Shown here piece by piece: positions 29,896-40,773 of a stretch of 64,000 nt of DNA. Made by a program: the position numbers and the translations under genes. Positions within the stretch are counted from its first letter, which is position 1. Every line of letters starts with the position of its first letter. The stretch comes from a virus, in IMG/VR virus record IMGVR_UViG_3300044800_000286. One strand, written 5' to 3'. The notes under the pieces were generated by a model. That model ran no database searches. It was not told the origin of the DNA and saw only the letters and a program-made list of their open reading frames with translations.

Positions 29896-29969
29896 TGGAG
29901 CGGACGATGAGAATTGAACTCACGCCTGAACGTTGGCAACGTTCCGTACTACCACTATACTACGCCCGC
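29896..29969 (-). tRNA. tRNA-Gly(GCC)
   Basis: GAACG-UU GCC AA-CGUUC; U73 CCA. Confidence 0.95.
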
Positions 29970-30061: not shown

Positions 30062-30147
30062 CCCGTCTGCACAGGGTTCCGAATCGAACGGGGAGGGAAT
30101 GACCCCCTTTGCTGGTCGCCTATGCCAGCCTGCCCTGTGCAGACAAG
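30062..30147 (-). ncRNA. tRNA-like RNA with a 12-15 bp closing stem, D-like arm and T-loop
   Basis: GUCUGCACAGGG/CCCUGUGCAGAC; GCUGG-CAUAGGCGA-CCAGC; CCG-UUCGAUU-CGG. Confidence 0.65.
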
Positions 30148-30239: not shown

Positions 30240-30336
30240 CGGTATCGGCCCCTGCCGCGAAGCCTTCAAAGGCTCCGACCGCGCATACGCCGCCCAAGGT
30301 GTCTGCGGCGGCGACGAATTGGAGACTGCGGTTCAT
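30211..30336 (-). CDS. 41-aa attenuator leader peptide MNRSLQFVAAADTLGGVCAVGAFEGFAAGADTVSSEDGWEG
   Basis: Below the ORF-track cutoff; contains a cognate codon for all 14 downstream anticodons; stop codon lies in the antiterminator loop. Confidence 0.8.
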   Translation of the reverse strand: MNRSLQFVAAADTLGGVCAVGAFEGFAAGADTVSSEDGWEG

Positions 30337-30392: not shown

Positions 30393-30538
30393 GGAAGCTG
30401 CCCGGTAGGGAGTCAAAACCCTATCCGTGCCCGGATCGCAGCTTGCGCTGCGGCATCGCCCCGAACTATGCGGGGGCATTCTGCCGTATGATCCACTCCT
30501 GCGCAGGGGCGAACCACGTTAAACTACGGGCAGCTTCC
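30393..30538 (-). ncRNA. 146-nt expanded tRNA-like RNA
   Basis: 12-bp closing stem GGAAGCUGCCCG/CGGGCAGCUUCC, UAGUUUAA junction, CCCCG-CAUAGUU-CGGGG arm, two GNRA hairpins, T-like arm UAGGG-UUUUGACU-CCCUA; TTGACA promoter upstream. Confidence 0.65.
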
Positions 30539-30574: not shown

Positions 30575-30614
30575 GTCAAGAACTATTTTTGGGAATTATC
30601 CCTTTAACTCCACA
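30575..30614. repeat. 40-bp dispersed repeat, copy 1 (includes the -35 TTGAC on the minus strand)
   Basis: 36/40 identical to 31385-31424. Confidence 0.85.
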
Positions 30615-30920
30615 AACTTCTAGCGTGGGATTTGGGTTACGTCGCAATTTCACTAAAGTGACGCCCTTGTCAGAACAATTTAACGTCGTGTACTTGATCC
30701 ACGAACGCAGGGACTTGTTGTGACGCAAAACTCGACGGATGCAAACGCCAAGGTAGCCTGTGTTCGTATTTATGAATCCGGGGATTATTCCTCGATTACG
30801 ACCGTGGCCGTGAATCAGCGTCAAACGGTCCTTGCCCGTCTCCCATGCCTGCTGCACAATCTTGTTGAGAATTCCATCGGTGATATCTGCCGGGAAGTAT
30901 CCGTGAAGGTCAATTTCCAC
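30576..30920 (-). CDS. Smr-domain protein
   Basis: EIDLHG and TLIHGHG Smr motifs; GGAGG RBS. Confidence 0.75.
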   Translation of the reverse strand: MEIDLHGYFPADITDGILNKIVQQAWETGKDRLTLIHGHGRNRGIIPGFINTNTGYLGVCIRRVLRHNKSLRSWIKYTTLNCSDKGVTLVKLRRNPNPTLEVCGVKGIIPKNSS

Positions 30921-32216: not shown

Positions 32217-32420
32217 TTAGACCGGGACCACGTTGGCCGCTTGCAGGCCCTTGGGTCCGGTCACGACCTCGAACTCGACGGCCTGTCCCTCGTTCAGGGA
32301 CTTGTAGCCGTCCGCCTGGATCGCGGAGAAATGGACGAAAACGTCCTCGCCGCTCTGGCGCTGGATGAATCCGTAGCCCTTGCTGGCGTTAAACCACTTC
32401 ACTGTTCCTTGTTCTTTCAC
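32217..32420 (-). CDS. cspA: cold-shock protein (CspA family)
   Basis: GTVKWFN, KGYGFI (RNP1), VFVHF (RNP2), GPKG.QAANV. Confidence 0.97.
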
Positions 32421-39852: not shown

Positions 39853-40773
39853 CTATTCTTCGGTCGCCGGACCTGTCCTTTTGCCCCTTTCTTTGGGTGG
39901 AAAAAGGTCGATGATGGCACAAATGTCCCTGATGCGGCGGCTGAAATCCGCGCCGAACACATTGCTGAATTCGTTGAACGTGAGGTTGCTGTTCACCACA
40001 AGCTGCCCGTAGTTGTCATGCAGGGAGTTCAAGATTTCAAACAAATTGGCACGGCGAACTTCCGTCTCCTTGATTTTGTCGATCTCTTCGAGGAAAAGGT
40101 GGAACTTGCCGCCGCTGTCCGATGCTGCCTTGATCTTCTCGCTTGATACCTCGGGCTCCATGAGCATGGGCTTGAATTCATCGTCCGGGTCGTGTTTGTG
40201 CATCGTCCAATCGGTGTGTTGGTCCAGCATAAGCTTGGTGGAAATGCGGCGCACGGGAAAAACCCGCCTGTAATCCTCGCGCATGCAGGTCTTCCACAGC
40301 AAGTCCGCGTACAACGCCGTCGTCCATGTGGTTTTGCTGGTTCCCGGCGGCCCGAAAAACGCATAAGAGCCCTCGGGATTTGCCTTAAGCGCATTAATGA
40401 CTTCCTGTTGGCGCTCTGTGGAAAGCGTGGACTTGCCATAAGGCTTCAGGTTCTTCAGGGTGATCTCGCGGTAGCGTGGAGGCACCGTATCCCGGTAGAT
40501 TCTGGTAAAGTTCGATAGGCGGCGGGCGTACCTGACGCAGGTGGAGCAAGTCACCAGCATCATCGGGTTGCTGTCCTTGTTCCCGTTGTCTTCGTTGTAT
40601 TTTTTCGTTACCGGATCGGGAACCAACATCTCGCGCTCTCCGCGACATTGGGGGCAGTTGGGGCACTTCTCGTCGAAACGACTTACAAACCAAGCATAGC
40701 CTTCGTTCCCGAGACGCTCCCGTTCGAGCTTTTCATACCAAATCGGTCTCTTAGTTTCAAGCATTCGCCGCAT
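39853..40773 (-). CDS. DnaC/IstB-like AAA+ helicase loader
   Basis: Zn-binding Cys, VPPRY, GPPGTSKT, LEEID, NSN, sensor arginine. Confidence 0.8.
   Translation of the reverse strand: MRRMLETKRPIWYEKLERERLGNEGYAWFVSRFDEKCPNCPQCRGEREMLVPDPVTKKYNEDNGNKDSNPMMLVTCSTCVRYARRLSNFTRIYRDTVPPRYREITLKNLKPYGKSTLSTERQQEVINALKANPEGSYAFFGPPGTSKTTWTTALYADLLWKTCMREDYRRVFPVRRISTKLMLDQHTDWTMHKHDPDDEFKPMLMEPEVSSEKIKAASDSGGKFHLFLEEIDKIKETEVRRANLFEILNSLHDNYGQLVVNSNLTFNEFSNVFGADFSRRIRDICAIIDLFPPKERGKRTGPATEE

Follow-up and report, generated by a model that had tools for sequence, protein, structure and literature searches.

The window analyzed here is a 64,000-nucleotide stretch in reverse orientation to its IMG/VR virus record (IMGVR_UViG_3300044800_000286), which spans 155 kb and is approximately 50% complete. 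At positions 30538–30393 of its minus strand lies a sequence predicted to encode a 146-base RNA with many hairpins and an oversized tRNA-like shape. A sequence-only reading of the window had proposed a giant tRNA-shaped RNA at this position, and its coordinates are right, with 30538 as the 5′ end and 30393 as the 3′ end on the minus strand. Directly upstream is the gene of a stand-alone Smr-domain protein of 114 amino acids (30576–30920, minus strand), and a TTGACA box resembling a −35 promoter element (30579–30574, minus strand) overlaps the stop codon of this gene. The same reading had assigned the element its own TTGACA promoter. The hexamer is indeed there, but the −10 sequence located 18 nt after it (TATTGA) is weak, and a consensus promoter scan called neither of the two. 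Transcription would start approximately 4–8 nt before the closing stem of the element. The downstream context (30392–30150, minus strand) consists of a 56-nt spacer, a 41-codon leader ORF with its ATG at 30336 (minus strand), and an intrinsic terminator (30187–30162, followed by a T run) approximately 200 nt downstream of the element. The terminator is followed by a second tRNA-like RNA and then by 14 tRNA genes; the gene of an RNase P RNA lies among these. The neighboring tRNAs and the RNase P RNA are all encoded on the strand of the element. The true tRNAs of the array encode CCA, as checked for tRNA-Gly (29896–29898).

The element begins with the 5′ strand of a closing, acceptor-like stem (P1, 30538–30527) and ends with the 3′ strand of this stem (30404–30393); the two strands form the perfect 12-bp inverted repeat claimed by the sequence-only reading. 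The 5′ strand is directly followed by the tRNA-like junction of that reading, namely UA (U8 and N9 in the tRNA numbering), the 5′ strand GUUU of a D-like stem, and AA (A14 and R15; 30526–30519). A long hairpin (P2, 30517–30488; 9 bp plus 3 bp with four G-U pairs) is inserted in the D-loop as had been described, between GUUU-AA and ACGGCA-GAAU, where ACGGCA provides G18, G19, Y20, and A21, and GAAU is the 3′ strand of the D-like stem (30487–30478). In the established tRNA structure, the part of the D-loop where the long hairpin sits faces outward, and by this correspondence P2 would be inserted at an outward-facing position. The anticodon-like arm (P3, 30475–30459) has the expected 5 bp and the 7-nt loop CAUAGUU, which contains neither U33 nor R37. 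Two hairpins, P4 (30451–30438) and P5 (30436–30423), occupy the variable region. Both had been described as GNRA-capped; this applies to P4 (GCAA) but not to P5, the loop of which is GGCA. The T-like arm, also correctly recognized from the sequence, is located at 30423–30406 and consists of 5 bp and, in the window, an 8-nt loop (UUUUGACU), which is degenerate and has a U at the position of C56. A single unpaired C separates the T arm from the 3′ strand of P1, which is a tRNA-like spacing. The 3′ strand is fully paired and is followed by an AU-rich sequence (GUUAAU; GUUAAUAA). In agreement with the earlier description, the 3′ end carries no CCA, and a presumably single-stranded AU-rich sequence is located 3′ of the closing stem in all three sequence variants of the element described below.

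The predicted minus-strand fold of 30538–30393 has a free energy of −75.9 kcal/mol (z = −5.62), and none of 200 shuffled sequences folded as well. The fold of the plus strand of the same 146 nt is weaker (−71.5 kcal/mol). We regard the minus strand as the functional one because of the four G-U pairs in P2, the T-loop motif of the relatives, and the orientation of the neighboring RNA genes. One 12-bp inverted repeat within 300 nt is approximately the chance expectation per 64 kb, and the case for the element therefore rests on its conservation and on the comparative data.

Three sequence variants of the element were found, all at the same locus. In addition to the window, these are the variants of G001, a 463-kb phage genome (100% complete) reached by an RNase P RNA scan of viral contigs followed by BLAST, and of L067, a 28-kb metagenome contig found by a two-anchor pattern. 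A leader-peptide search led to L068 as its sole further variant, the element of which is identical to that of L067. Another six contigs, from different samples, match the window over 580 nt with 100% identity and hold no comparative information. The order of the TTGACA box, the element, the leader ORF, the terminator, and the tRNAs is common to the window, L067, and G001, and the TTGACA box is at an equal distance from the element in the three variants. A covariance model (R1; 25 pairs) was built from the three variants, and a search with it found exactly one copy of the element each in the record of the window's phage (G000) and in G001. Two other large phage records, one of them (G002) with an RNase P RNA, gave no match to R1, and neither did the small loci picked up by the RNase P pattern. 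Megablast and blastn searches against GenBank phages matched only a tRNA. The search with the neighboring Smr protein yielded only the identical contigs and bacterial loci, that with a tape-measure-like protein yielded no relatives in IMG/VR, and that with the cold-shock protein retrieved two loci, both lacking the element. Patterns of the 5′ junction, the internal motifs, and the conserved spacer gave only chance matches in IMG/VR and the GTDB genomes; two of these patterns were overly strict, their gap being too short for G001. Full-text literature searches found no paper describing the element. A 15-nt repeat at 40000 was rejected as a chance match lying in coding sequence.

The neighboring proteins point to an acidobacterial host in peat or soil, because the Smr protein and a cold-shock protein are closest to those of Acidobacteriota (up to approximately 75% and 90% identical, respectively). 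Among the relatives of the Smr protein, with identities of up to approximately 75%, one retrieved locus was bacterial and one match was named Terracidiphilus. The Smr gene does not occupy this upstream position in either L067 or G001, and the neighbors there are different. The cold-shock protein is approximately 90% identical to acidobacterial proteins of the CspA family. Its gene is located directly upstream of the element in L067 (L067:313–516) and approximately 1.7 kb upstream in the window (32217–32420, minus strand), with three inserted genes in between.

Comparison of the three variants revealed a conserved scaffold, in which 97% of the cells are paired, in contrast to 38–56% when the partners are slid. 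Three scaffold pairs have changes on both sides among the three variants; the covariation is thin, as only three sequence variants were found in everything searchable. The inner 8 bp of the closing stem (GCUGCCCG/CGGGCAGC) are invariant. The outer extension of this stem is GGAA/UUCC in the window and L067, whereas in G001 it is AGAAGG paired with UCUUCU beyond one bulged U, resulting in a stem of 8 bp, one bulged U, and 6 bp. The junction, GUUU, and AA are invariant in the three variants except for N9, which is A or C. The D-like stem (GUUU/RRAY) is 100% paired with three one-sided changes, the 3′ strand RRAY always being compatible with GUUU, and the sequence ACGGYA is kept in the three variants (GG-Y-A at G18/G19/A21). 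The outer 4 bp of P2 covary, and the inner part of P2 is entirely different in the relatives yet still forms a hairpin. The T-arm stem also covaries, with one pair observed as AU, CG, and UG. The T-loops of the relatives are 7 nt in length, UUCGAUU in L067 and UUCAACU in G001, and both fit the UUCRANY consensus. Read as parts of a tRNA, the conserved parts correspond to U8, N9, the D stem (10–13/22–25), A14, R15, G18, G19, Y20, A21, and the T arm. The core positions U8, A14, R15, G18, G19, and A21 and a UUCRANY T-loop are all present in L067 and G001, and all except the T-loop are present in the window. In the window and L067, the minimum free energy (MFE) fold prefers a competing helix, GGYA/YGYC (GGCA/UGCC in the window), over the D-like stem, which is part of the MFE fold of G001 only. 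Forcing the tRNA-like model costs 4–8 kcal/mol, the cost of imposing the D-like stem on the window or L067 being approximately 7–8 kcal/mol, and three sequences are too few to decide between the D-like stem and the GGYA/YGYC helix.

The interior of the element, in contrast, is variable. The flanks of the element are 84–100% identical between the window and L067, and the spacer up to the ATG of the leader ORF is identical, whereas within the element approximately 100 nt drop out of the BLAST alignment of the two. No alignment can be made of the anticodon-like and variable arms of the variants, yet these arms are always stable hairpins, several of them with GNRA loops. In the window, the anticodon-like arm combines 5 bp with a 7-nt loop; its counterpart in L067 also has 5 bp but encloses 21 nt, and the layout in G001 is different again. 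The variable region of L067 has a single hairpin, as opposed to two each in the window and G001. A P4-like hairpin is found in G001 and is missing in L067, and at the position of P5 the relatives carry a CCC-UYAGC-GGG hairpin. The folds of the whole RNAs are far better than those of shuffled sequences in the three variants (z = −5.6 for the window and −5.1 and −3.2 for the others). The core is kept and the periphery is refolded; therefore, selection appears to hold the core and the folding of the periphery, but not the sequence or the layout of the periphery. The comparative sequence data led us to conclude that the element is a real and conserved tRNA-shaped RNA, predicted to be non-decoding, that recurs in three phage lineages.

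The sequence-only reading had regarded the element as a tRNA mimic unlikely to decode, which agrees with the core being kept in three phages, the lack of conservation of the anticodon-like arm, the absence of CCA, and the lack of a call by ARAGORN or the Rfam tRNA model. None of the partners suggested by the same reading (the ribosome, a synthetase, or a defense nuclease) is favored by the present results. ARAGORN and RF00005 called the 14 neighboring tRNAs but not the element, even when a 191-nt stretch was searched at E ≤ 10. A cloverleaf tRNA has a 7-bp acceptor stem, a 7-nt anticodon loop with U33 and R37, and a 12-bp acceptor/T branch; the element has the loop CAUAGUU and a closing stem of 12 bp, and it possesses no encoded or addable single-stranded 3′ CCA. 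The best score with the tRNA-Sec models was 15.9 bits, compared to a threshold of 47. A comparison with Rfam and a covariance model of homologs had been proposed as checks, with a match to a known family or a lack of structural conservation counting against the proposal. No family of Rfam 15 reaches its threshold, and the structure underlying R1 is conserved, so neither objection arises. The Atu_C7 sRNA (RF02501) was rejected as a candidate, as its score was 26.9 bits compared to a gathering threshold of 45, on the opposite strand and with most of the match in the unstructured part of the model; the score on L067 was 10.2 bits.

Two known classes of tRNA-like RNAs share parts of this architecture. 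In the tRNA-like domain of tmRNA, paired ends likewise make up an acceptor stem that adjoins a T arm, and the 5′ side contributes a D-loop-like strand. However, the element has no CCA, G3:U70, internal tag ORF, or pseudoknots, and neither ARAGORN nor the Rfam tmRNA models detected a tmRNA at the element. The YrlA-type Y RNAs of bacteria and phages (RF02553), which are associated with Ro60/Rsr, are also non-decoding and have tRNA-like D and T arms and tertiary positions. [quoted passage not shown] In contrast to the element, which is in the normal tRNA order, YrlA is circularly permuted, with its ends forming the Ro60-binding handle and its acceptor sealed. The RF02553 model gave nothing above threshold over G000 and G001 and no match at the element. 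The Ro60/TROVE domain (PF05731) was not matched in G000 or the complete G001, with controls matched; a very diverged Ro60 would escape this search.

Judged by its layout, the closest analog of the element appears to be T4 species 1 RNA (rnaC), a phage-encoded stable RNA of 139 nt within the T4 tRNA cluster and on the tRNA strand. In both RNAs, the ends pair as an acceptor-like stem, a T arm (canonical in rnaC) adjoins the 3′ strand, long hairpins replace the D and anticodon arms, a variable-arm-like hairpin is present, and decoding is absent. The likeness is one of layout with no sequence relationship, since R1 matched only the T arm of rnaC in the T4 locus (10.8 bits, E = 0.59). The two differ in that rnaC is located at the far end of its cluster, whereas the element is at the head, before the attenuator; in that the end stem of rnaC is approximately 7 bp with mismatches, compared to the 12–14 perfect pairs of the element family; and in that rnaC lacks the GUUU/GG D-like module with the inserted hairpin. 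The function of rnaC was still described as unknown in 2022 (PMC9697503). From Acidobacteria and peat soils, allo-tRNAs and irregular tRNA-like sequences have been described that share the habitat and probably the host phylum with the element. Among them are forms with a long acceptor stem, a long variable arm, additional loops, or a five-stem junction, and for some of them a regulatory role instead of decoding has been suggested (Mukai et al. 2017, PMC5389517). Allo-tRNAs have a 12-bp acceptor/T branch (8/4 or 9/3) and a real anticodon loop and are charged in the tested cases, whereas the element has a branch of 17–19 bp, an unconserved anticodon, and no CCA.

As the best explanation, to which we give about an even chance, we propose that the element is a conserved non-decoding tRNA-shaped RNA that forms the first module of an attenuator-gated operon of tRNAs and RNase P RNA. 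In its tRNA-like core, the acceptor-like closing stem would be stacked on the T arm, and the loop of the D-like stem would present G18 and G19 to the T-loop, thereby building a tRNA elbow. The peripheral hairpins, namely the D-loop insert, the anticodon-like arm, and the one or two variable arms, would be free to change. The kept parts are those through which the shape of a tRNA, as opposed to its identity, is read by factors recognizing the elbow and the acceptor, such as RNase P, RNase Z, the CCA-adding enzyme, and TruB/TrmA. Because the elbow and acceptor features are kept and the features for decoding or charging are missing, we infer that the cell handles the element like the body of a tRNA. 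It may be released as a stable small RNA by excision from the 5′ end of the transcript of the operon; alternatively, it may remain attached to a short leader transcript as a 5′ cap that resists nucleases and docks tRNA enzymes. The short leader RNA would be made at every initiation, regardless of whether the terminator is passed. The transcription start, the processing, and any partner of the element are presumed here from its sequence and context.

Several observations count against this proposal. The tRNA enzymes measure a 12-bp acceptor/T limb, and the closing stem of 12–14 bp and the 5-bp T stem together form a longer limb (17–19 bp), which counts against easy processing. A base-paired 5′ end makes a poor RNase P substrate, and the 5′ end of the element is base-paired, which counts against processing by RNase P. 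The degenerate T-loop of the window, the position of the D-like stem outside the MFE fold in the window and L067, and the weak −10 sequence also count against it.

An alternative that we consider unlikely is that the element is a cis-acting regulatory leader. It would act on the polymerase or a factor, like the put-type antiterminator RNAs or a ligand- or protein-binding leader, and would thereby set the read-through of the terminator into the tRNA array. Such a role is consistent with the location of the element in the three phages, where it directly follows the probable promoter and precedes an intrinsic terminator, and with the tRNA operon being a 3.5-kb transcript that is untranslated and highly structured. 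However, the element is closed by its own stem of 12–14 bp, no complement of at least 9 nt to the leader or the terminator was found in any of the three variants, there is no match to an Rfam leader or riboswitch, and the features of the tRNA core would be left unexplained.

It also seems rather improbable that the element is released and acts in trans, either as a look-alike that binds a tRNA-directed defense nuclease or toxin of the host, or as a substrate for charging or modification by a synthetase-like enzyme. If it misled an anticodon nuclease, its anticodon arm would be expected to stay tRNA-like, but this arm is the least conserved part, and the element has no free CCA end. The rapid change of the interior between otherwise close phages could reflect a conflict of this kind. 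G001 carries a protein of 239 amino acids with a class II synthetase core approximately 400 nt downstream of the element, but no homologue of its gene was found in the available sequence of the window's phage or L067. The idea that the element is functionless, as a tRNA gene in decay or as a small insertion with palindromic ends that folds by chance, would suit the degenerate T-loop of the window, the unconserved interior, and the approximately one 12-bp inverted repeat expected per 64 kb by chance, but is very unlikely given that the position and the scaffold are kept in phages only approximately 75% identical around the element, that the outer stem pairs are compensated, and that the hairpins are rebuilt and not lost. 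A miniature transposon was rejected, as the target site is not duplicated and neither genome has a second copy.

The preferred reading of a non-decoding tRNA-shaped module has a more speculative extension, to which we assign only a slight probability. [quoted passage not shown] This would couple the state of tRNA processing or translation to the decision at the attenuator, with the fast-changing peripheral hairpins tuning or evading host factors.

Unexplained tRNA-shaped stable RNAs have been known in phage tRNA clusters since T4 species 1 RNA was sequenced in the 1970s. The element is a second, independent example, and it has a defined context at the head of an operon of tRNAs and RNase P RNA behind an attenuator. 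It could help show whether such RNAs serve as a processing signal, a stabilizer, or a dock for tRNA-reading enzymes. The frozen scaffold, as opposed to the rebuilt peripheral hairpins, suggests which parts of a tRNA shape are under selection without decoding.

Some additional observations were made in the surroundings of the element. In L067, a linker found only in this variant of the element (UGUCCAAAGCCC, L067:678–689) and the spacer between tRNA-Ala and tRNA-Asp in its operon (L067:1516–1527) are perfect complements over 12 nt. Approximately 0.04 such matches are expected by chance, and the match has no counterpart in the window or G001. The synthetase-like gene of G001 (L182:2071–2790; G001:C1:304511–305227) is located after the leader and two tRNAs. 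Its product is closest to GlyRS and HisRS but below all family cut-offs, with only core-domain families matching, and is much shorter than the partly matched synthetase models (400–565 positions). Another phage, L016 (IMGVR_UViG_3300018031_000005), a complete record of 168.6 kb with terminal repeats, has an RNase P class A core motif (L016:6795–6813) directly after an array of 15 tRNA genes and lacks the element.

The second tRNA-like RNA, which sits between the terminator and the first tRNA (30065–30144, minus strand), is conserved in L067 (L067:971–1053) and absent in G001, and was not called by ARAGORN. It also has a perfect 12-bp closing stem (z = −4.7). It contains three arms: a D-like one carrying GG, one of 5 bp capped by the 7-nt loop UCAUUCC, and one of 3 bp whose loop, UUCGAUU, is a perfect T-loop.
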